From a virus, in the UHGV virus genome UHGV-0042115: 37,114 bases of DNA; one strand, 5' to 3'. Positions 688 through 37,114 of this stretch are shown in pieces. The notes beneath the pieces were generated by a model, which saw nothing but the letters and a program-made list of their open reading frames with translations, did not search any database and was not told where the DNA came from. Both the position numbers and the translations under genes were made by a program. Positions within the stretch are counted from its first letter, which is position 1. Each line of letters opens with the position of its first letter.

Positions 688-1743
688 TTATGACGGGGTA
701 ATGCCAACCGCTGCCGCCACTTTGTCGCCACTTGGCAGCGTTGCCAGAGGATTGAAACGGAGCGCCGTTTCCAGATGATCCGGTGCCAGATGTGCGTAAC
801 GCATCGTCATTTTTATATCGTGATGTCCGAGAATTTTTTGTAAGGCCAGGATGTTTCCACCCGACATCATGAAGTGCGCCGCAAACGTATGGCGCAGAAC
901 GTGTGTCAGTTGACCGCGAGGGAGCACGATAGACGTTTTTTCCATCACGGATAAAAATTGAAAATAGCAGTCTGTGAAGAAATTGAACCCATCAAGCGCC
1001 ATGATCTCTTCGTAAAGCTCTTTACTGATAGGGATGCTTCTGTTTTTCTTCCCCTTCGTTCTTACAAAGGTAATTCGGTATTTGGTCACCTGTGAGCGGG
1101 TAAGATTTACGGCTTCACGCCAGCGTGCGCCTGTGCTTAAGCATATCTTGACTACCAGTGCCAGAATTGGGTCCTGACGTTTGCAATCAGCCAGTAATTC
1201 AACAATCTGCTCATGGGTAAGCCATGCCATCTCTTTTTCTGCGATGGTGAATTTTCGCATGTTCTCCAGTGGGTTCGGATACGACCATTCGCCCAGGCGG
1301 GATAGTTCGCTAAAAACACTACTTAGATAGCTTTGCTCCAGGTTAATGGTGACCGGGCTTGCTCCTTTCTTCCATTTCTCGCTGAAGTAGATCTCTCCTG
1401 TCAGGCGTTTATCTCGATAGTGGGCAAACATTTTAGATGTGAGATCGGTTGCAAGGGGATTGCCCAGAGCGTCAACCATTAACAGCAGTTTGTCATAGAC
1501 ATGCTGGCCAGCTGTCAGAGATTTACCATGTAGTTTGAACCATAGTTCAACCACGTCTTTCAGTGTTCGACGATCCACTGATTCGCCCAGCTAGGGCTTT
1601 GCTTCGCTTTCTTCCATCGTGTGACGCTCAAAAGCCAGAGCTTCGCCTTTGGTAGCGAATTGTTTACGCACACGACGTCCGCTACGTCCGGCGGGGTAAC
1701 ATTCGCAAAGCCATTTTCCTGTGGTGAGTTTTCGTACTGCCAT
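688..1743 (-). pseudogene. int: Tyrosine integrase (P2/186 family) interrupted by in-frame TAG at codon 51
   Basis: Minus-strand ATG at 1743 gives MAVRKLTTGKWLCECYPAGRSGRRVRKQFATKGEALAFERHTMEESEAKP then TAG (1593..1591), then continues in frame as LGESVDRRTLKDV... to the C-terminal catalytic region (HxxR...Y: LRHTFAAHF...MRYAHLAP). Confidence 0.7.
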
Positions 1744-1834: not shown

Positions 1835-2386
1835 TTAAATTCTGTTTTGCAGACCTGATATAAAAATATTATAACTGTGTGAAAGATTTCCAGTGATTCT
1901 AAGGCACTTGCCTATTGCTCTTGATCCAGATACCTTTTGATAAGCGTATTTTGTCAGAGATACCAATTCTTGAGCTGCGTTACCAAGTCGATCAGGGTTA
2001 CGATATTTACTATTATTTTGAGATCGGGAAAGCCGCGGGATTCCTAAAGCTTCCTCGACAGACAATAAATCTCCAAGATACCAGCTTTCAAGCTCATGGC
2101 ATGCAATGCGTATTAAAACATCTGTTTTACCAGCCTTTGAGCAAATATCAGACAGTCTAGATTTAATTGTTGGACCATCTCCGCTATCTTTATCTCTAAT
2201 GACTACAAAAATAGTATCAGGAGTCATCCAGTTTTTTAATTTTTTCTCCAAGTTCTTTTCTAGATCCTGTTTACCTTCAAATACAATATATCGAGTGTCT
2301 GCATCTGCCGGAAGTAATCGAGGCAGTAATCCTTTCAGCATTTCTGCTGCAGATAATTCTTCTAGAAAGAAAGCATAAGTTGTCAT
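1835..2386 (-). CDS. Small Toprim-like protein (DUF4276-like by motif recollection), partner of the upstream ATPase
   Basis: 183 aa; motifs IVFEGKQD and VVIRDKDSGDG resemble Toprim E...DxD; start overlaps the ATPase stop (ATGA); AT-rich. Confidence 0.55.
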   Translation of the reverse strand: MTTYAFFLEELSAAEMLKGLLPRLLPADADTRYIVFEGKQDLEKNLEKKLKNWMTPDTIFVVIRDKDSGDGPTIKSRLSDICSKAGKTDVLIRIACHELESWYLGDLLSVEEALGIPRLSRSQNNSKYRNPDRLGNAAQELVSLTKYAYQKVSGSRAIGKCLRITGNLSHSYNIFISGLQNRI

Positions 2387-3582
2387 TGCGGATCAACTCC
2401 TGGGAAAAATCCTTGTTTCCATAAATATCCCATTTTATCTCCATCATTCATATAGGCTACAAGTTGAGGATCATCTGAAGCCCTGAAAGCACGAGTATAT
2501 CCATTGGTTTTAGTTAACCAGAAAACCTCATCAATATTTACTGCATTCAAGAAGTCTGGGGAATGTGTAGAAACAAATACTTGCCCTCCTCTCTGTGTAT
2601 AGGCTCTGAACTCCTCTGCTAATTCTACTAGCAGTTTTGGATATAGTTGATTTTCCGGCTCTTCGACACATAATAATGGATGAGGCTCAGGATCGTGTAA
2701 TTGTACTAAATATGCAAACATTTTTAATGTTCCATCAGATACATATCTATCGATAAAGGGATCTGCAAAGCTTCCATCTTGAAAACCTAATAATAAACGA
2801 CCATCTTGAGTGCTTATCGGTTTAACATCAGAAACTCCGGGAACTCTATGTTTCATTGAGTCAATAATTTTAGAAAATATTTCAGGATAATTATCGTGGA
2901 TGTTTCGTGCAACTAACTGTAAATTATCGCCAGTTGCAGAAAGATGGTCTTCATATCCAATAGCATCTTTTGATCCCCTAGCTGCATTGATATGAAAGTC
3001 GGAAACATGCCAATTTTCAATTAACTGCCTGAAAGCACTGGCTGCTTTAAATTTACTAAATTGACCTAACCCTTTGATTGCTAAAACATCATCAGAATCA
3101 AGCTGCTGAGTCTCTCTGTTTAGTTCTTCATCTTGTTTACTGAAATCATCTTCATTAACAATCGCAGTACCATGGCCTCTGGAGAAGTCCAAAAAGTGAT
3201 AAGGCGAGCCAAAGGAACCTCTTTTATATCTCAAGATTTCTCTTTCAACATAAACTTTTTTCCTAGAATCTTCTTTAAGTTTTAGAATATAAGTAACTAA
3301 TCGTTCATACCCACTTATTTCAATACGAAATTTTACTTCAATCTCTATTGTCCGGTCGGTAACATCCACTCCACGGCTCAGAAGTTCTTCAAAACCTCCT
3401 CTTTTCTGAACAGCACTTCTCACATTGAAAGTAAGACAATCTTTCAGAAAGCCAAACACATCAAAAAGAGTAGTTTTTCCTACGCCGTTTGCCCCGACAA
3501 TAACACAAAATTTGGGGATATTGTTCATCTCAAGATCTTGGAACGACTTGAAATTTTTTAATTTTATGGCTTCAATTAACAT
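2383..3582 (-). CDS. ABC-type ATPase (OLD/AAA_15/AAA_21-like architecture)
   Basis: 399 aa; N-terminal Walker A GANGVGKTT, C-terminal Walker B LLCVEEPE and STHSP H-loop separated by ~250 aa; ATG 8 nt after the repressor stop with SD-like AGGA in between. Confidence 0.75.
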   Translation of the reverse strand: MLIEAIKLKNFKSFQDLEMNNIPKFCVIVGANGVGKTTLFDVFGFLKDCLTFNVRSAVQKRGGFEELLSRGVDVTDRTIEIEVKFRIEISGYERLVTYILKLKEDSRKKVYVEREILRYKRGSFGSPYHFLDFSRGHGTAIVNEDDFSKQDEELNRETQQLDSDDVLAIKGLGQFSKFKAASAFRQLIENWHVSDFHINAARGSKDAIGYEDHLSATGDNLQLVARNIHDNYPEIFSKIIDSMKHRVPGVSDVKPISTQDGRLLLGFQDGSFADPFIDRYVSDGTLKMFAYLVQLHDPEPHPLLCVEEPENQLYPKLLVELAEEFRAYTQRGGQVFVSTHSPDFLNAVNIDEVFWLTKTNGYTRAFRASDDPQLVAYMNDGDKMGYLWKQGFFPGVDPQ

Positions 3583-3590
3583 AATGTTCC

Positions 3591-4484
3591 TTAATTGCTT
3601 TTATTGATGCTGGAAATGAATAAATAAACTCTAGCTACAAAATTGATATCAGAAAAACCACATTCAAAGCTATTTATGGAGGATGATACTTTTATCACCT
3701 TCTTAGGTAGTCTTGTAATATGCCGAATTGAATAGGTTTCATCGATATTGATGAGCCAGTGTCCATCCAATACATCAGTAATGTTTTGATCACAAATGTA
3801 TGTCATCAACCCGTCTTGAATGACAATTGGTGCTGAAAGATTAGCAGGTAAAAATGACGTATCGAAAATATATGAACCACACTCAACCATTTTTCCTGCA
3901 TTGAGATGAAATTTAGGCAGCTCTTTTACCAATGTTGTGAGAGAACTGTGCTTGCTGCCTTGCCCAGTGGCTAGCCATAAAAGAGAATTTCCTGTTTCCA
4001 ACGAGCATTTTATGATCCAATCAGCTGGGAAAGTGTCTCGTAAATATCTGTTTGCCATGGTGCTTTTAGATACATTCAAATGGTCGGCAAGTTCTTGTCT
4101 TGTTTTGAAGCCATACGCTTTCATTAGCCGGTCTATTGCATCACGTCCGCCTGAATCCAAATTCAGCAAGTTCCCAATAGGGTTCTCTTGATTATTGATT
4201 TGGGGAACATACTGAACCTTTGGTGCAGTTGCCTTTGACATGACCGATGCCTCTGTATTCTGAGGGAATGGTACGCCTTTTCCGAATGAGAGCCATTCGA
4301 TAGATGCACCCGTTTCAATTGCACACTGAATTACCCAGTCAGCAGGAAATACGTCACGCATCCAGCGCGTACCCATAGTGCTTGCAGATACGTTGAACTG
4401 CTCGCATAGAGCTTGCCTTGTCTTGAATCCATACGCCTCAAGCATGCGCGTTATGACTGCTTGTCCTCCGTTTTTGAAATTCAT
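3591..4484 (-). CDS. 186 CI-type immunity repressor with tandemly duplicated N-terminal DNA-binding domain
   Basis: 297 aa; two copies of the ...AYGFKTRQ.L...NVS.STM..R..RD.FPADW.I.C..ETG......WL..G.G module (aa 9-70 and 116-176) then a C-terminal domain; divergent from the apl/cII genes. Confidence 0.7.
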   Translation of the reverse strand: MNFKNGGQAVITRMLEAYGFKTRQALCEQFNVSASTMGTRWMRDVFPADWVIQCAIETGASIEWLSFGKGVPFPQNTEASVMSKATAPKVQYVPQINNQENPIGNLLNLDSGGRDAIDRLMKAYGFKTRQELADHLNVSKSTMANRYLRDTFPADWIIKCSLETGNSLLWLATGQGSKHSSLTTLVKELPKFHLNAGKMVECGSYIFDTSFLPANLSAPIVIQDGLMTYICDQNITDVLDGHWLINIDETYSIRHITRLPKKVIKVSSSINSFECGFSDINFVARVYLFISSINKSN

Positions 4485-4509
4485 TTATTACGCCTTTGAG
4501 TAATTTTGG

Positions 4510-4538
4510 TTGACACTTCTCAAATGAAGAATTAGTGT
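4510..4538 (+). promoter_or_regulatory. Candidate rightward early promoter (TTGACA, 17-nt spacer, TAGTGT)
   Basis: Consensus -35 with a weak -10, located in the repressor / apl divergent intergenic region. Confidence 0.25.
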
Positions 4539-4608
4539 GTGCGAAAGTGAACTGAACAGGATTGATCACCAGTTACCACACATCTTGTTAAACGAGGAAT
4601 CTTGCATC

Positions 4609-4830
4609 ATGACTCCACATATTTCAATCACCTTAGCTGTCCCATCTGTGTCTATTGAGAAATACAGTGAACTGACTGGGTTATCTATCGATACTATCAA
4701 TGACATGCTGGCTGATGGCCGCCTTATTCGCCATCGTCTCCGTAAAGATAAAAAGCGAGAAAAGGTAATGATCAATATCGCTGCAATGACCGTTGATGCG
4801 CTCTCTGAATGCAATTTGAGTATTAACTAG
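4609..4830 (+). CDS. Apl/Cox-like small early protein (excision/regulatory); alternative start at 4537
   Basis: First rightward gene divergent from the repressor; GAGGA SD 10 nt before ATG 4609; small basic protein. Confidence 0.45.
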   Translation: MTPHISITLAVPSVSIEKYSELTGLSIDTINDMLADGRLIRHRLRKDKKREKVMINIAAMTVDALSECNLSIN

Positions 4831-4862
4831 TTCCATTTTGGGATACATCAGGGGTGTCGACT

Positions 4863-5372
4863 ATGTTTGATTATCAAGTTTCCAAACATCCACATTTTGA
4901 TGAAGCCTGTCGTACATTCGCGCTGCGCCACAACCTGGTGCAACTGGCAGATCGTGCAGGCATGAATGTGCAGATTTTGCGTAACAAGCTGAACCCAGCT
5001 CAACCTCATTTATTAACCGCACCAGACATCTGGTTGCTTACCGATCTGACTGAAGATTCAACGCTGGTAGACGGTTTTCTGGCACAGATTCATTGTCTGC
5101 CATGTGTTCCGATTAATGAGGTGGCAAAAGAGAAATTGCCGCATTACGTCATGAGTGCAACTGCAGAGATCGGGCGTGTTGCTGCAGGTGCGGTATCTGG
5201 CGATGTAAAAACCAGTGCAGGTCGTCGTGATGCTATCAGCAGCATTAACTCTGTAACACGACTGATGGCGCTGGCTGCTGTTTCATTGCAGGCCCGTTTA
5301 CAGGCTAACCCGGCGATGGCGAGTGCAGTTGATACCGTGACTGGCCTCGGTGCTTCATTCGGTTTGCTGTGA
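4863..5372 (+). CDS. 186 CII-like regulatory protein
   Basis: 169 aa [45 protein letters not shown]... resembles 186 CII as I recall it; position after apl. Confidence 0.55.
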
Positions 5373-6413: not shown

Positions 6414-7267
6414 GCACCATCCTGAAATGGGCGGGTAATAAAACCGCCATTATGTCCGAACTGAAAAAACATCTTCCTGCTGGCCCGCGACTGGTTGAAC
6501 CTTTCGCGGGTTCTTGTGCTGTGATGATGGCGACGGATTACCCCAGCTATCTGGTTGCGGATATTAATCCTGATTTAATCAACCTCTATAAAAAGGTTTC
6601 TGCTGATTGTGAGGCGTTTATATCTCGCGCCAGAGTTTTATTTGAGAACGCAAACAGGGAGGTGGCTTATTACAACATAAAGCAGGAGTTTAATTACTCA
6701 ACTGAAATTACTGATTTCATGAAAGCGGTATATTTCCTGTATCTCAATCGTCACGGTTACCGTGGGTTATGTCGCTATAACAAGAGCGGGCATTTCAACA
6801 TTCCCTACGGTAATTATAAAAATCCGTATTTCCCTGAAAAAGAAATTCGCGCATTTGCAGAGAAAGCCCAGCGAGCAACGTTTATCTGCGCCAGCTTTGA
6901 TGAAACGCTGGCGATGCTGCAGGTGGGGGATGTGGTGTATTGCGATCCGCCTTATGACGGTACGTTTTCCGGTTATCACACTGACGGCTTCACTGAAGAT
7001 GACCAGTATCACCTGGCATCCGTTCTTGAACATCGGTCATCAGAAGGACATCCCGTCATTGTTTCTAACAGTGACACATCCCTGATCCGTTCGCTGTATC
7101 GCAATTTTACTCACCACTACATCAAGGCAAAACGCAGCATCGGTGTGGCAGCTGGTGATAGTAAATCTGCAACAGAAATCATTGCTGTTTCCGGGGCGCG
7201 CTGCTGGGTGGGATTTGATCCTTCGCGTGGCGTAGATAGTTCTGCTGTGTACGAGGTGCGTGTATGA
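6410..7267 (+). CDS. DNA adenine methyltransferase (Dam-like, D12 class)
   Basis: Motifs [53 protein letters not shown]; GGAGG SD before ATG 6410. Confidence 0.88.
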
Positions 7268-9676
7268 GTCATGACGATATGAGCAACTCTAGCGGCTTTA
7301 ACGAGGCCGCTGCATCATTTTCATGGAACGGCCCGAAAAAGGCCATTAACCCTTATCTGGACCCGGCGGAATTTGCGCCGGAGTCTGCACTTTCAAACCT
7401 GATCACTCTGTATGCTGCCGATAACGAGCAGGAACAACTGCGCCGCGAGGCACTGAGTGAGCAGGTCTGGGAGCGTTATTTCTTTAATGAATCCCGTGAT
7501 CCTGTCCAGCGCGAAATGGAGCAGGATAAGCTCATTAGCCGCGCAAAGCTTGCGCATGAGCAGCAGCTTTTTAACCCGGACATGGTCATTCTGGCAGATG
7601 TCAGCGCCCAGCCTACCCACATCAGCAAGCCGCTGATGCAACGTATCGAATACTTCAGCAGCCTGGGCAGGCCAAAGGCTTATTCCCGCTATTTGCGTGA
7701 GACGATTAAGCCATGTCTGGAGCGACTGGATTGTGTACGCGACAGTCAGCTATCCGCTTCTTTCCGTTTTATGGCAAGCCATCAAGGGCTTGAGGGCCTG
7801 CTGATCCTGCCTGAAATGAGTCAGGATCAGGTAAAACGCCTGTCCACCCTGGTAGCTGCGCATATGAGCATGTGCCTTGATGCCGCTTGTGGCGATTTAT
7901 ATGCCACCGATGACGTTAAGCCAGAAGAAATCCGCAAGACATGGGAAAAGGTGGCAGCGGAAACCCTGCGACTGGATGTTATCCCGCCTGCGTTTGAGCA
8001 ACTCCGCCGGAAAAGAAACCGCCGCAAACCCGTGCCCTATGAACTCATACCGGGTTCGCTGGCACGTATGCTTTGCGCCGACTGGTGGTATCGAAAATTG
8101 TGGAAGATGCGTTGCGAATGGCGGGAAGAGCAGTTGCGTGCTGTCTGCCTGGTCAGCAAAAAAGCATCTCCCTATGTCAGCTATGAAGCCGTGACGCATA
8201 AACGTGAGCAGCGCCGTAAGTCGCTGGAGTTTTTCCGTTCTCATGAACTGGTGAACGAAGACGGCGACACGCTGGATATGGAAGATGTGGTAAACGCCAG
8301 CAGCAGCAACCCGGCACATCGCCGCAATGAGATGATGGCCTGTGTTAAAGGTCTGGAGCTTATCGCAGAAATGCGTGGTGACTGCGCCGTTTTCTACACT
8401 ATCACCTGTCCGTCACGTTTCCATTCCACGCTCAACAACGGCAGACCCAACCCGACCTGGACAAATGCGACGGTAAGACAAAGCAGCGATTATCTGGTCG
8501 GCATGTTTGCTGCATTTCGTAAGGCTATGCACAAAGCCGGGTTGCGCTGGTATGGCGTGCGGGTGGCTGAGCCGCACCATGACGGTACTGTGCACTGGCA
8601 TCTCATGTGTTTCATGCGCAAAAAAGACCGCCGCGCCATTACTGCATTGTTGCGTAAGTTTGCCATCCGTGAAGACCGCGAGGAACTGGGTAATAACACT
8701 GGTCCACGCTTTAAATCTGAGCTGATAAACCCACGCAAAGGAACACCGACAAGCTACATCGCGAAATACATCAGTAAGAACATTGACGGGCGTGGTCTGG
8801 CTGGCGAGATCAGCAAGGAAACGGGTAAATCCCTGCGTGATAATGCTGAATACGTTAATGCTTGGGCGTCTCTGCATCGTGTTCAGCAATTCCGCTTCTT
8901 TGGCATTCCGGGGCGTCAGGCTTACCGTGAACTGCGATTGCTGGCTGGTCAGGCGGCAAGGCAACAGGGGACAAAAAGCAGGTGCGCCGGTACTGGATAA
9001 CCCGCGCCTTGATGCCATCCTGGCTGCTGCTGATGCTGGTTGTTTTGCCACCTACATCATGAAGCAGGGCGGCGTACTGGTTCCCCGCAAATATCACCTT
9101 ATCAGAACAGCTTATGAAATTAACGAAGAGCCGACTGCTTATGGCGATCACGGTATTCGTATTTATGGCATCTGGTCACCCATTGTACAGGGCAAGATTT
9201 GCACTCATGCAGTGAAGTGGAAAATGGTTCGTAAGGCCGTTGACGTTCAGGAGGCGGCAGCCGACCAGGGCGCTTGCGCCCCTTGGACTCGTGGCAATAA
9301 CTGTCCCCTTGCTGAAAATTTGAACCAACAAGGGAAAGACAAATCAGCTGATGGGGACTCCAGAACGGATATTACCCGTATGAATGACAAGGAGTTGCAC
9401 GATTACCTGCACAGTATGAGCAAAAAAGAGCGCCGGGAACTGGCTGCAAGGTTACGCCAGGTGAAACCGAAACGGCGTAAAGACTACAAACAGCGAATTA
9501 CGGACCATCAGCGACAGCAGCTCGTCTATGAACTGAAGTCCAGGGGATTTGATGGCAGCGAGAAAGAAGTCGATTTGCTCCTTCGCGGCGGCAGTATTCC
9601 GTCAGGAGCAGGCCTGCGTATCTTCTATCGGAACCAGCGTCTGAAGGAAGATGATAAGTGGCGGAACCTGTATTAA
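7264..9676 (+). pseudogene. A: Replication initiator gpA-like (rolling-circle endonuclease), reading frame changes near 8963-8990
   Basis: First 578 codons end at TAA 8998-9000; the remaining ~230 codons continue in the +1 frame (…[17 protein letters not shown]…) to 9676; junction lies in a G4/A5 homopolymer region. Confidence 0.7.
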
Positions 9677-11318: not shown

Positions 11319-11894
11319 ATGCTTTTACCCGTAAGTATTACATCGTGTGGCTTGTATCACCCCTACTGGCATTTGGGAGAGCGCAACCCTCATAGCGATG
11401 AACTATCAAGGCAGATGATGGATTTTAAGGATGAAAATAATCGTAATCATCAAAGGGCCATTAACCGTTTTTCTCGATTAGCTATAGATAAGGTTGGGCG
11501 GTTAGTAATCAGAGGTGGCGGTGGGCGTTTTGTTGAGTCTCCTTTTTCGATAGCAGTTGTCCCGTCTCACACTGAAGGCAGAATTTCACCGGCTTTGATT
11601 GAGGTCGCCGAGCGAATCGTAAATGTTCACCGTCGGGGCATTGTTGATTGCTGTTTGGAAAGAACACGCACTGTTCCTAGCGCACATCGTGAAGGTGGAG
11701 ATCGCTCAATTACTGGTCACATGTCTAGTATCAGAGTTAGGGGTGGTAACCTCATGGGGCGAAATGTGTTACTACTAGATGATGTTAAAACAACAGGCGG
11801 TAGTTTGTCTGCGTGTTTTTATTTACTGGAGTCTGCAGGAGCTGGAGTTATAATGCCATTAGCTCTGCTAGAAACTGCAAACTATGAGGAGTAG
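11319..11894 (+). CDS. Phosphoribosyltransferase (PRTase)-domain protein, ComF-like; candidate toxin/effector
   Basis: 191 aa; C-terminal PRPP-binding motif NVLLLDDVKTTGGSL; ATG directly after an in-frame stop. Confidence 0.7.
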   Translation: MLLPVSITSCGLYHPYWHLGERNPHSDELSRQMMDFKDENNRNHQRAINRFSRLAIDKVGRLVIRGGGGRFVESPFSIAVVPSHTEGRISPALIEVAERIVNVHRRGIVDCCLERTRTVPSAHREGGDRSITGHMSSIRVRGGNLMGRNVLLLDDVKTTGGSLSACFYLLESAGAGVIMPLALLETANYEE

Positions 11895-11898
11895 CAAA

Positions 11899-12858
11899 GT
11901 GCACTCAGAAGAATTAAAAAATACACTTGGATTAGCTATTCAAATCGGGAAGCTAGCATCTGATCAAAGTGTATTAAAATTCTTTGAGCTTATCGATTTT
12001 GATGTTATTCGTGATATACGCGACTTAACTGAGATGGTTAATAGCCACGGGTTTCTAAAAGATAAAATATCTGAGACTGATTTTCTAATAGCGAACGCTG
12101 AATTGGAGAACCACCATGTTAATGGTGTGGAGCTAATACCATATGGGTCTGAATTCTATCCTCTTAGTTTAGCTTTTACTCCTAATCCACCATCAATTCT
12201 CTACATAAAAGGGGATAAAAGTATACTCAAAGAATTGCCGGGTGTCGCAATTGTAGGATCCCGTGATACCTCCCCTGCAGGGGAAGAAATAACGAGGCGG
12301 ATCACTAATCAGATAGTGTCTGCTGGGTATATTGTTGTAAGTGGGTTAGCAATAGGCACTGATGCGAATGCTCACAAGGCAACGTTACAGGCAAAAGGAA
12401 AAACCATTGCTGTCTTGGCGCATGGTCTTGAGGAGGCTAAGCCGAAGCAAAACAGTCGACTTGCTCAAGAGATTCTGGATAAAGGTGGTGCATGGATTTC
12501 TGAGTATCCTATGGGTCGGCCGGCCCAGAAACAATCATTTGTACAAAGAAATCGGATACAAGTTGGATTATCTGCAGGTTCAATTTTAATCGAGGCTGCG
12601 TTAAATAGCGGAACGATAACTCAAGCTGAGTTTGCAAATAAGGCGAAAAGACCAGTGTTTGCGGTTGTACCTCACCTACCTAATAATCCGCTTAATCTTA
12701 ATTGTGAGGGAACAGTTGATTTAGTTAAGAGCAACATGGCTAGAGCGCTAAAAACAAAACGGGATTATGATGATGTGATTATGATCATAAATGAGTCCCG
12801 GGAGTATTTGTTAGAGCTAAAATGGCCAGGGAAACAGAGTACATTAGACTTGATTTAA
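11899..12858 (+). CDS. DprA/Smf-like (Rossmann-fold DNA-processing) protein; alternative ATG start at 11884
   Basis: VAIVGSRDTSPAGEEI...VVSGLAIGTDANAH...TIAVLAHGL...YP...FVQRNRIQVGLS...LIEAALNSGT...PVFAVV matches the DprA core; AGGAG SD 7 nt before GTG 11899, just after the PRTase stop. Confidence 0.8.
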   Translation: MHSEELKNTLGLAIQIGKLASDQSVLKFFELIDFDVIRDIRDLTEMVNSHGFLKDKISETDFLIANAELENHHVNGVELIPYGSEFYPLSLAFTPNPPSILYIKGDKSILKELPGVAIVGSRDTSPAGEEITRRITNQIVSAGYIVVSGLAIGTDANAHKATLQAKGKTIAVLAHGLEEAKPKQNSRLAQEILDKGGAWISEYPMGRPAQKQSFVQRNRIQVGLSAGSILIEAALNSGTITQAEFANKAKRPVFAVVPHLPNNPLNLNCEGTVDLVKSNMARALKTKRDYDDVIMIINESREYLLELKWPGKQSTLDLI

Positions 12859-24120: not shown

Positions 24121-25868
24121 GCACAAAATTTTATACCCTGCTGACGGATATTGGCGCGGCGAAACTTGCCAGCGCCGCCGCGCTCGGTGTGCCGTTAAAA
24201 ATTACCCATATGGCGGTCGGCGATGGCGGCGGAACATTACCAACGCCGGACGCAAAGCAGACAGCACTGGTAAATGAGAAACGCCGGGCTGCGCTGAATA
24301 TGCTCTATATCGACCCGCAGAACAGCAGCCAGATTATTGCTGAACAGGTGATCCCTGAAAACGAGGGCGGTTGGTGGATACGTGAAGTGGGCCTGTTTGA
24401 TGAGTCCGGGGCATTGATTGCCGTGGGCAACTGCCCGGAAAGCTATAAGCCGCAACTGGCTGAAGGCAGCGGGCGTACCCAGACCGTGCGTATGGTGTTG
24501 ATTACCAGCAGCACGGACAATATCACCCTGAAAATCGACCCTGCCGTAGTGCTGGCAACCCGCAAGTATGTGGATGACAAAATATCAGAGCACGAACAGT
24601 CACGACGTCACCCGGACGCCTCGCTGACCGCAAAGGGTTTTACTCAGTTAAGCAGTGCGACCAACAGTGAATCCGAAATACTGGCCGCAACACCGAAGGC
24701 TGTGAAGGCTGCATATGATCTTGCAGCAGGTAAAGCATCCGCCAGTCACACACACCCGTGGAATCAGATAACGGATGTGCCTGCAGCTTCACTGACGGTA
24801 AAAGGCACCGTGCAACTCAGCAGCGCCACTAACAGCACGTCAGAAACGCAGGCTGCCACACCAAAGGCAGTGAAGGCGGCATATGACCTTGCAGCAGGTA
24901 AGGCACCTGTCAGTCACACGCACCCGTGGAGCCAGATAACGGATGTGCCTGCAGCTTCACTGACGGTAAAAGGCACCGTGCAACTCAGCAGCGCCACTAA
25001 CAGCACGTTAGAAACGCAGGCTGCCACACCAAAAGCCGTGAAGGCTGTATATGACCTTGCCAATGGAAAACAACCTGCCGACGCCACACTGACCGCACTG
25101 GCAGGCCTTGCCACTGCGGCAGACAAACTTCCGTATTTTACGGGGAATGATACAGCCAGCCTGACAACCCTGACTAACGTTGGACGGAATATTCTGGATA
25201 AAGCAAGCACACAGGCGGTTATTCAATATCTTGGTCTGAGCGATGCAAGTGGATACGTTGGACGCTGGCTGAATACCCGGGTTTTCACCTCATCAGGTAC
25301 GTACACCCCGACGCCAGGAACAAAACGGATCAGGGTCACAATAACTGGCGGCGGTGGCGGTGGGGGCGGCTGCAAGGCTATATCCAATAATGAAACGTTT
25401 TTCGGTGCTGGCGGTGGGGCCGGTGGAACAATAATTTCAATAATGACCCCGACACAGAATAGTTATCCAGTCACTATCGGCGCAGGTGGGGCCGGTGGTG
25501 TTAGTGCGACGAACGGCACCAGTGGCGGGAATAGCGTATTTGCATCGTTAATTGCTCCTGGTGGCGCAGGTGGCGGGAAAGTGGGAGTTACAAATACAAA
25601 CGGCGGTAACGGAGGTGTGCCGAGTACTGGCGATATCCGCATCACTGGTGGAAATGGAGGCGACGGTCAGTCCGGAAATATCAGCGTCAGCGGTGAAGGC
25701 GGAACATCGTACTGGGGTGGCGGTGGACGCGCAGGCGCTGGCGGTGGCGTTAGCGGTAAGGCATATGGTTCAGGCGGAGGTGGTGCATACGATGCCGGTT
25801 ATAGCGGAACCAGTATGACGGGCGGGAAAGGCGCTGCAGGGATTTGTATTATCGAGGAGTTTGCATAA
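24117..25868 (+). CDS. H: Tail fiber protein H with internal tandem repeats and glycine-rich C-terminal domain
   Basis: Conserved P2 H-like N-terminus (MSTKFYTLLTDIGAAKLA...); repeats and Gly-rich C-terminus described separately. Confidence 0.85.
   Translation: MSTKFYTLLTDIGAAKLASAAALGVPLKITHMAVGDGGGTLPTPDAKQTALVNEKRRAALNMLYIDPQNSSQIIAEQVIPENEGGWWIREVGLFDESGALIAVGNCPESYKPQLAEGSGRTQTVRMVLITSSTDNITLKIDPAVVLATRKYVDDKISEHEQSRRHPDASLTAKGFTQLSSATNSESEILAATPKAVKAAYDLAAGKASASHTHPWNQITDVPAASLTVKGTVQLSSATNSTSETQAATPKAVKAAYDLAAGKAPVSHTHPWSQITDVPAASLTVKGTVQLSSATNSTLETQAATPKAVKAVYDLANGKQPADATLTALAGLATAADKLPYFTGNDTASLTTLTNVGRNILDKASTQAVIQYLGLSDASGYVGRWLNTRVFTSSGTYTPTPGTKRIRVTITGGGGGGGGCKAISNNETFFGAGGGAGGTIISIMTPTQNSYPVTIGAGGAGGVSATNGTSGGNSVFASLIAPGGAGGGKVGVTNTNGGNGGVPSTGDIRITGGNGGDGQSGNISVSGEGGTSYWGGGGRAGAGGGVSGKAYGSGGGGAYDAGYSGTSMTGGKGAAGICIIEEFA
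24617..25075 (+). repeat. Three tandem ~168-bp (56-aa) repeats within the tail fiber gene
   Basis: Unit ...ASLTVKGTVQLSSATNSTSETQAATPKAVKAAYDLAAGKA.VSHTHPW.QITDVPA...; copies 2 and 3 nearly identical at nucleotide level (period 24773 to 24941). Confidence 0.7.
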
Positions 25869-36131: not shown

Positions 36132-36389
36132 TCAGGCGTCCAGATTTTCTTTCACCCATGCAGCAAAATCGGTATAGCCGCCGATATGTTGCTGATCGAC
36201 AAAAATCTGCGGCACGGTTTCTACGGGTTTACCTGCCTTTTGTTGTAGATCTTCTTTAGTGATCCCTTCCGCACGAATATCTACATACTGATACTGAAAA
36301 TCATCGCGTTCATTGCTCAATTTCTCAGCCAGATCTTTTGCACGCACACAGTAAGGGCAACCCGAACGACCAAAAATAACGGTTTGCAT
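36132..36389 (-). CDS. grxA: Glutaredoxin 1
   Basis: MQTVIFGRSGCPYCVRAKDLAEKL... with CPYC active site; AGGAG SD before ATG 36389 (track ORF starts upstream). Confidence 0.93.
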   Translation of the reverse strand: MQTVIFGRSGCPYCVRAKDLAEKLSNERDDFQYQYVDIRAEGITKEDLQQKAGKPVETVPQIFVDQQHIGGYTDFAAWVKENLDA

Positions 36390-36548
36390 TATTTCTCTCC
36401 TCATAGATTTATGCCTGTAATGATCACGCTAAAATGTATTCGCTGAAAGTAGGTTTAACCTGTTGCATTAATTGCTAAAAGCTATAACTGTTAAACACAA
36501 TACAGTGAAAAGTTTTAGACTGAAGGCTCACTTTGCAGAGGGAAGCGT

Positions 36549-36902
36549 ATGCGCGCGATCGGTAAATTGCCTAAAGGCGTGTTGATACTGGAATTTATCG
36601 GAATGATGCTACTGGCGGTGGCGCTGCTGTCGGTAAGCGACTCCCTGTCGCTGCCTGAGCCATTTTCTCGGCCAGAAGTGCAGATTCTGATGATTTTTCT
36701 CGGTGTTTTGCTCATGCTTCCCGCTGCGGTGGTGGTTATTCTTCAGGTGGCAAAACGTCTTGCCCCACAGCTGATGAACCCATTTCCGAAGCGCAGCGTG
36801 AGGCGATTATTAACAGCGCCCGTGCGACGTCCAGTTCCAGTTTTTTGCAGTGCAGTAGCATTATTCGCATTACCGACAAAGCGTTACGTGAAGAACTGGT
36901 GA
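36549..36902 (+). CDS. ybjC: YbjC-like membrane protein with aberrant 3' end reading into nfsA sequence out of frame
   Basis: N-terminal ~77 aa look like YbjC; after ...QLMN the ORF continues as PFPKRSVRRLL..., which is nfsA DNA read in the wrong frame. Confidence 0.6.
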   Translation: MRAIGKLPKGVLILEFIGMMLLAVALLSVSDSLSLPEPFSRPEVQILMIFLGVLLMLPAAVVVILQVAKRLAPQLMNPFPKRSVRRLLTAPVRRPVPVFCSAVALFALPTKRYVKNW

Positions 36903-37114
36903 CGCTGACCGGCGGGCAAAAACACGTAGCGCAAGCGGCGGAGTTCTGGGTGTTCTGTGCCGACTTTAACCGCCATTTACAGATCTGTCCGGATGCTCAG
37001 CTCGGCCTGGCGGAACAACTGTTGCTCGGTGTCGTTGATACGGCAATGATGGCGCAGAATGCATTAATCGCAGCGGAATCGCTGGGATTGGGCGGGGTAT
37101 ATATCGGCGGCCTG
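36773..37114 (+). pseudogene. nfsA: nfsA (oxygen-insensitive NADPH nitroreductase) lacking start codon and first ~18 codons; runs off window end
   Basis: Frame reads DEPISEAQREAIINSARATSSSSFLQCSSIIRITDKALREELVTLTGGQKHVAQAAEFWVFCADFNRHLQ..., matching NfsA from about residue 19; upstream in-frame sequence is ybjC DNA with no start codon. Confidence 0.65.

Follow-up and report, generated by a model that had tools for sequence, protein, structure and literature searches.

We found that the ybjC-nfsA junction at the end of a viral genome, UHGV-0042115, has lost 101 bp, including the start of nfsA. The whole stretch of DNA that was analysed, 37,114 nucleotides long, is referred to here as the window. 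To judge from its sequence, the deleted locus is an nfsA null allele from which NfsA cannot be made. In undeleted DNA the missing segment is bounded by a 10-bp direct repeat, and the same junction recurs in E. coli genomes with different flanks. We consider it very probable that the deletion arose by slippage between the two repeat copies, that it represents the classical first step to nitrofuran resistance and that it recurs across lineages. Nitrofurantoin is a first-line drug against urinary infection, and resistance to it takes two hits.

When positions 36400-37114 of the window were aligned with K-12 MG1655 (NZ_CP032667.1), 715 of 715 bases were identical and a single gap of 101 columns was opened. 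The preliminary description of this DNA, made from the letters alone, had suspected an abnormal ybjC-nfsA arrangement with a microhomology common to both genes at the junction. The gap rules out the normal arrangement, and the microhomology is an exact 10-bp direct repeat in K-12, where two copies of CTGATGAACC bound the 101 bp, one in ybjC and the other in nfsA (direct-repeat scan, family D2). The ybjC copy (1872-1881 of the reference locus) comprises codons L75-M76-N77 plus one base; the nfsA copy (1973-1982) corresponds to nt 53-62 of the gene, T18-D19-E20-P21. The undeleted sequence therefore has exact direct repeats at both endpoints, spaced by 101 bp, and the window retains one copy. Within the 1.2-kb ybjC-nfsA region, this pair is the longest exact direct repeat within 400 bp and the sole repeat pair that straddles the nfsA start. 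The features of the locus are collected in Table 1.

Table 1. Features of the deleted ybjC-nfsA locus, in window coordinates
Feature	Position	Strand	Evidence
grxA-ybjC intergenic region with the ybjC-nfsA operon promoter	36390..36548	+	36400-36548 100% identical to K-12
Chimeric ORF, 117 aa: YbjC 1-77 followed by 40 out-of-frame residues from nfsA DNA	36549..36902	+	ORF list
Deletion junction, single surviving copy of CTGATGAACC	36771..36780	+	K-12 alignment, repeat spacing 101
nfsA remnant, in frame D19-L132 (window and contig end)	36773..37114	+	translation, Pfam, start scan

The deletion damages both genes. On the ybjC side, residues 78-95 (18 codons) and the stop are lost, and YbjC is kept through residue 77. 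On the nfsA side, the ribosome-binding region, the ATG and nt 1-52 (the unambiguous extent) are gone, and with them codons 1-17/18; the 17-nt overlap between ybjC and nfsA is removed as well. No IS element, target-site duplication or foreign DNA was found at the junction, and the flanks are 100% K-12 up to the repeat on both sides. Further upstream, the region 36300-37114 opens with the end of grxA on the minus strand, followed by the intergenic region and then by the plus-strand ORF. The ybjC-nfsA promoter is SoxS-dependent or SoxS-activated, as summarised in PMC11936445. Since the promoter region is unchanged relative to K-12, transcription of the damaged operon presumably continues.

The ybjC frame runs out of frame into nfsA DNA and stops at a TGA (36900-36902), which gives 117 codons where the wild type has 95. 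This reading, and the placing of the junction at 36771-36780, had already been made in the preliminary description, and all of its checkable details hold. The wild-type proteins are as it assumed: YbjC is 95 aa long, and NfsA begins MTPTIELICGHRSIRHFTDEPISEAQ. The tail of the chimera is basic and unrelated to YbjC, and the Pfam DUF1418 match covers residues 1-86 of the chimera as opposed to 1-92 of wild-type YbjC. An in-frame YbjC-NfsA fusion was considered and rejected because ybjC and nfsA lie in different frames. YbjC is an inner-membrane protein. Polarity of the long untranslated nfsA remnant on rimK-ybjN is possible; more speculatively, either such polarity or a membrane-anchored YbjC(1-77) chimera could add a phenotype of its own.

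The anatomy of the lesion suggests a simple mechanism. During replication, the two copies of the repeat, 101 bp apart, would misalign, and one copy would be lost along with everything between the copies. The product would be an nfsA remnant lacking a usable start, out of frame with ybjC and deprived of Arg15 and of the N-terminal part of the nitroreductase fold. Cells lacking NfsA would then activate nitrofurantoin, furazolidone and nitrofurazone less well, and clinical resistance would normally require the loss of nfsB as well. Between the direct repeats we found neither a hairpin nor an inverted repeat (DNA fold MFE z = +1.28).

The established first step to nitrofuran resistance is loss of nfsA function, through point mutations, frameshifts, IS insertions or truncations, with loss of nfsB as the second (PMC8767348; PMC12554031). 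Wan et al. (2021; PMC8767348) put the number of partial nfsA sequences at 164 in 12,412 genomes. The ST131 isolate EC0629B (reads ERR2719250), listed in their Table 5 and supplement, has an nfsA allele given as '1:52del' and described as a '52-bp truncation at the 5'-end', an NfsB G192S substitution and an MIC of 512 mg/L. Aligned with nfsA by BLAST, the 101-bp-deletion allele would begin exactly at nt 53, the first base of the repeat (1973-1921+1). Because this nfsA-side endpoint, the only one published, agrees exactly, EC0629B very probably carries the same deletion in another lineage. The lesion is of a known kind, flagged as pseudogenes in RefSeq and very probably present in the literature under the name '1:52del'.

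What this allele would do on its own can be gauged from published isolates. Single nfsA nulls with wild-type nfsB mostly show MICs of 16-64 mg/L, with one at 256 mg/L (Wan et al., 2021, Table 5; PMC8767348). Values of 16-64 mg/L count as susceptible or 'susceptible, increased exposure' (PMC8767348), and the single-nfsA-null state has been termed 'pre-resistant' (Sealey et al., 2025; PMC12554031). The gene nfsB lies outside the window. In the complete genome of strain MS 85-1, which is nearly identical to the window, nfsB is full-length (217 aa), and its product differs from that of K-12 only by G66D, M75I and V93A. Sealey et al. (PMC12554031) regard M75I and V93A as functionally wild type; for G66D we found no statement, and the main text of the Wan et al. 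paper (PMC8767348) names none of the three. The ahpF gene is annotated as intact in MS 85-1. The full clinical genotype comprises the loss of both nfsA and nfsB, or involves ribE/oqxAB. Given the full-length nfsB of MS 85-1, the source strain is most likely pre-resistant rather than clinically resistant. The preliminary description had called the deletion a candidate nitrofuran-resistance lesion: this holds for the first step, that is for pre-resistance, and probably not for clinical resistance, as single nulls mostly stay at or below 64 mg/L and nfsB is full-length in MS 85-1. Because single nfsA nulls often fall in the susceptible range, resistance may escape clinical measurement.

We then looked at the distribution of the junction in public genomes. 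By megablast, the region 36400-37114 was found in 5,417 of 5,426 complete E. coli genomes. The wild-type matches listed came in two pieces spanning 816 bp, compared with 715 bp in the window, except for four genomes with IS1 inside nfsA. A 70-bp query over the junction was uninformative: wild-type genomes, matched by two pieces that are then joined, are ranked ahead of the true carriers. We used a junction-specific 44-mer (36754-36797) that shares less than the 28 nt of a megablast word with wild-type DNA on either side of the junction, and no match can start from the wild-type arrangement. It was present in eight of the 5,426 complete genomes: MS 85-1 (USA), OW848980 (Spain), 700481 (Pakistan), M505, YJ4 and M719 (Myanmar), CP52E (Thailand) and LHM10-1 (pig, China). 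Both genes are PGAP pseudogenes in each of the eight, with ybjC labelled 'missing C-terminus' and nfsA 'missing N-terminus'. At the protein level, the exact 117-aa chimera occurs on 73 contigs of a 15-billion-protein collection, and the 18 proteins of its 90% cluster are spread over about 160 contigs, Shigella flexneri included. From the protein alignment alone, this cluster shows several YbjC/nfsA allele backgrounds (G10/S10, L21S, D31G, S32T/P and others). An exact-pattern scan with a junction 26-mer found no occurrence in JGI metagenome contigs or in GTDB species-representative genomes, the latter result being expected of a set with one genome per species.

Carriers of a real nfsA knockout could also accumulate by neutral decay, through a high spontaneous rate of slippage and not through selection by nitrofurans. 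The low prevalence among complete genomes (8/5,426) fits such an account, as does the presence among the carriers of a commensal ileal isolate with full-length nfsB. Against it, the same collection holds many independent types of nfsA lesion, with IS1 and IS30 for example on the same haplotypes, and poultry-associated and clinical lineages are described as having an excess of loss-of-function alleles (PMC12554031, PMC8767348). Multiple lesion types combined with lineage enrichment form a pattern more typical of selection. Selection by nitrofurans is the account that we favor, and neutral decay, while it deserves serious consideration, appears rather unlikely.

The other insertions deserve mention in their own right. 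Complete genomes with IS1 or IS30 inside nfsA include the dog strain D5 (locus 36258-37757), VE-T9 and ET201, and D5 also carries a related P2-like prophage at the same site as the window. The gene is evidently a frequent target of independent inactivation.

We further compared the flanks of the junction among carriers. Compared across the 13.2 kb of flank that they share, the eight complete carriers form three haplotypes, 250-350 SNPs apart. Haplotype A comprises the three Myanmar isolates, and haplotype B comprises CP52E and LHM10-1; the members of each are identical to one another over the 13.2 kb. Haplotype C comprises MS 85-1, OW848980 and 700481, which are 3-10 sites apart and differ in the prophage at the adjacent site, present in full, as a remnant or not at all. 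A fourth flank haplotype was found among draft assemblies (ERR3712704). Haplotype B is set apart from the others by SNPs at -129 and +103 of the junction, and genomes such as UTME-7, 6EVA, wlxctx60 and XJ5.2 carry it without the deletion at 100% identity. The flank haplotype of the window is that of undeleted K-12. The identical junction thus occurs on at least two flank haplotypes, each of which is also found undeleted, which indicates that the deletion arose at least twice. Since the CTGATGAACC pair is conserved in E. coli, independent recurrence of the same deletion across lineages is the best explanation.

A single ancient origin, followed by spread through descent and homologous recombination and with no hotspot involved, would account for part of these data. 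Haplotypes A and C share an identical stretch of about 2 kb, from -831 to +1222 of the junction, and may not be independent of one another, and part of the carrier count is clonal, as shown by the identity of the Myanmar trio over 13 kb and by that of CP52E with LHM10-1. Haplotype B is harder to reconcile with this scenario: given its SNPs at -129 and +103 and its perfect match to undeleted genomes, import of the junction by recombination would need a tract shorter than 232 bp. The proteins of the cluster carry distinct ybjC/nfsA allele combinations, with Shigella flexneri among them, and a probable ST131 carrier (phylogroup B2) has been published. Taken together, this makes a single origin improbable and argues for repeated deletion at the conserved repeat. 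One may go further and suppose that the repeat pair is a genuine hotspot, that the deletion is among the commonest single nfsA nulls in E. coli and Shigella worldwide, and that it is a k-mer-detectable marker of 'pre-resistance' which gene-centred screens record as an anonymous 'partial nfsA'. We put this broader proposal forward only tentatively, and think it somewhat more likely to fail than to hold.

The reading of the deletion as a null allele depends on what the nfsA remnant can still encode. The nfsA frame of the window reads ...CPTADEPISEAQREAII / ...CPTADEPISEAQREAIINSARATSSSSFLQ..., and the match to wild-type NfsA begins at D19, in agreement with the preliminary description, which had placed it at about residue 19 and had seen no start codon upstream, where the DNA is that of ybjC. 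Both the start scan and the alignment bear this out. A TGA at 36656-36658 interrupts the frame, which is open from 36659 through the junction, and no ATG, GTG or TTG occurs in it between that TGA and NfsA codon 43. The remnant offers only these canonical in-frame starts: a TTG (codon 43), two GTGs (codons 61 and 78) and ATG (codons 110-111). Translation from the first of them, the TTG, would leave out Arg15 and the beginning of the nitroreductase domain. The Pfam nitroreductase match (PF00881) starts at profile position 12 in the remnant, compared with position 3 in wild-type NfsA. In the NfsA crystal structure, Arg15 is within the hydrogen-bond network that holds nitrofurantoin, its equivalent in the homologue FRP is required for NADPH binding, and Ser41 also contacts the drug (PMC8286842). 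The deleted stretch further includes the site of H11Y, a known resistance-associated substitution (Wan et al., 2021, Table 5; PMC8767348). With the start, the ribosome-binding site and nt 1-52 gone and the Pfam domain truncated at its N-terminus, the lesion is predicted to prevent the production of full-length, active NfsA.

It could be argued that the remnant still makes a working N-truncated NfsA, or a frameshifted YbjC-NfsA fusion, and that nitrofuran activation is kept. The frame is indeed open from 36659 across the junction, and gene callers predict products of 198 aa (from TTG, codon 43) or 180 aa (from GTG, codon 61) in other assemblies. We looked for an in-frame alternative start that would yield active NfsA and found none plausible: neither the TTG at codon 43, the earliest, nor the GTG at codon 61 is preceded by a Shine-Dalgarno match in the start scan. 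The 198-aa and 180-aa products would lack Arg15, Ser41 and at least 30 positions of the nitroreductase profile, a frameshifted fusion would still be devoid of residues 1-18, and PGAP annotates the remnant as a pseudogene. Retained activity is thus highly improbable, and the allele is best regarded as null.

The window derives at least in part from an older draft. Draft contig ADWT01000014.1 (GCA_000179135.1), from an E. coli 'MS' strain of the Human Microbiome Project, ends in the same 3,566 bases as the window, and position 37114 is the end of this contig, inside nfsA at codon 132, not the end of the gene. The complete genome of MS 85-1 (NZ_CP146650.1; human ileum, USA), an independent and later assembly, matches the whole window at 99.8-99.96% by BLAST with an identical junction, and runs on normally past the contig end into the remaining nfsA and rimK. 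Differences between the two concentrate in the tail-fibre repeat. MS 85-1 was not among the top entries of a 25-kb search, probably because two pieces overlapping in this repeat were left unjoined, and direct BLAST was used instead. That the draft contig collapsed both repeat copies of a genome with intact ybjC-nfsA is effectively refuted: the window does come from an old draft assembly with probable indel errors (a split gpA and three gaps over 25 kb) and does end at a contig break inside nfsA, but a 10-bp repeat is far too short for assembly collapse, and the junction is also present in the independent MS 85-1 assembly, in seven other complete genomes and on about 160 public contigs, with six countries represented among the complete genomes.

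Nearly all of the window (~617-33600) is a P2-like prophage located between rcdA (20-586) and ybjL. K-12, M505, CP52E and 700481 have nothing inserted at this site, HS, D5 and MS 85-1 have related prophages, and OW848980 has a remnant. Next to the integrase and cI, on the minus strand (1835-3582), the prophage encodes an AAA ATPase (399 aa) and a DUF4276 protein (183 aa) that match the PADLOC candidate defence system HEC-01 (E 1.6e-209 and 6.9e-75). Between the dinI-like and portal genes, on the plus strand (11319-12858), it carries a ShosT/ShosA pair, a toxin-antitoxin-type defence named Shosha, in which ShosA (annotated by PGAP as DprA) matches at E 2.8e-70 and ShosT at E 3.7e-14. The gpA replication endonuclease is split in the window into two overlapping ORFs (7264-9000 and 8783-9676), while it is a single 2,415-nt gene in MS 85-1; the split is probably an indel error of the draft assembly. 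The integrase ORF (688-1578, minus strand) is shortened to 296 aa, and PGAP calls the MS 85-1 integrase a pseudogene because of an internal stop, so that excision of the prophage may no longer be possible. The tail-fibre repeat at 24651-25060 has several alternative alignment registers and is not the same in the window as in MS 85-1, which suggests a difference in repeat copy number or a mis-assembly. In carrier 700481, ybjI (locus 4199-5014), whose product is a riboflavin/FMN-pathway phosphatase, has an internal stop and is annotated as a pseudogene. FMN is the cofactor of NfsA and NfsB, and the ybjI pseudogene might have a bearing on nitrofuran susceptibility or none at all.

Strains without nfsA stand one mutation away from nitrofurantoin resistance, and recognition of the 101-bp deletion could allow genome surveillance to flag such 'pre-resistant' strains. 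The junction 44-mer does not occur in wild-type genomes and is thus usable as a simple diagnostic k-mer. More generally, the deletion shows by example that unrelated lineages can acquire one and the same null allele again and again through a short, conserved repeat. The biology itself is not new, as the role of nfsA and this class of lesion are both well established; our analysis adds the precise structure (10-bp repeat, 101 bp, chimeric ORF), the recurrence and a k-mer for surveillance.

Like the 'truncated' or 'fragmented' nfsA alleles already published (PMC8767348, PMC12554031), the 101-bp deletion is expected to abolish NfsA production. It goes beyond them in that its ybjC endpoint, direct repeat, chimeric ORF and recurrence are defined; the ybjC endpoint, the 10-bp repeat, the chimeric ORF and the cross-lineage recurrence were undescribed in the nfsA literature searched, where the '1:52del' of Wan et al. 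was the sole entry to fit this junction. The IS1 and IS30 insertions, common in the same neighbourhood, hit the same target gene with the same expected phenotype, whereas the 101-bp lesion is clean and IS-free, also damages ybjC and does not revert by excision. Deletions between short direct repeats ('slipped misalignment') have been classically described for E. coli lacI. The ybjC-nfsA deletion resembles them in its short, exact ancestral repeats 101 bp apart, in the single copy left behind and in the absence of a mobile element, and it differs in that no hairpin or inverted repeat, of the kind able to stimulate slippage, separates its two repeat copies.
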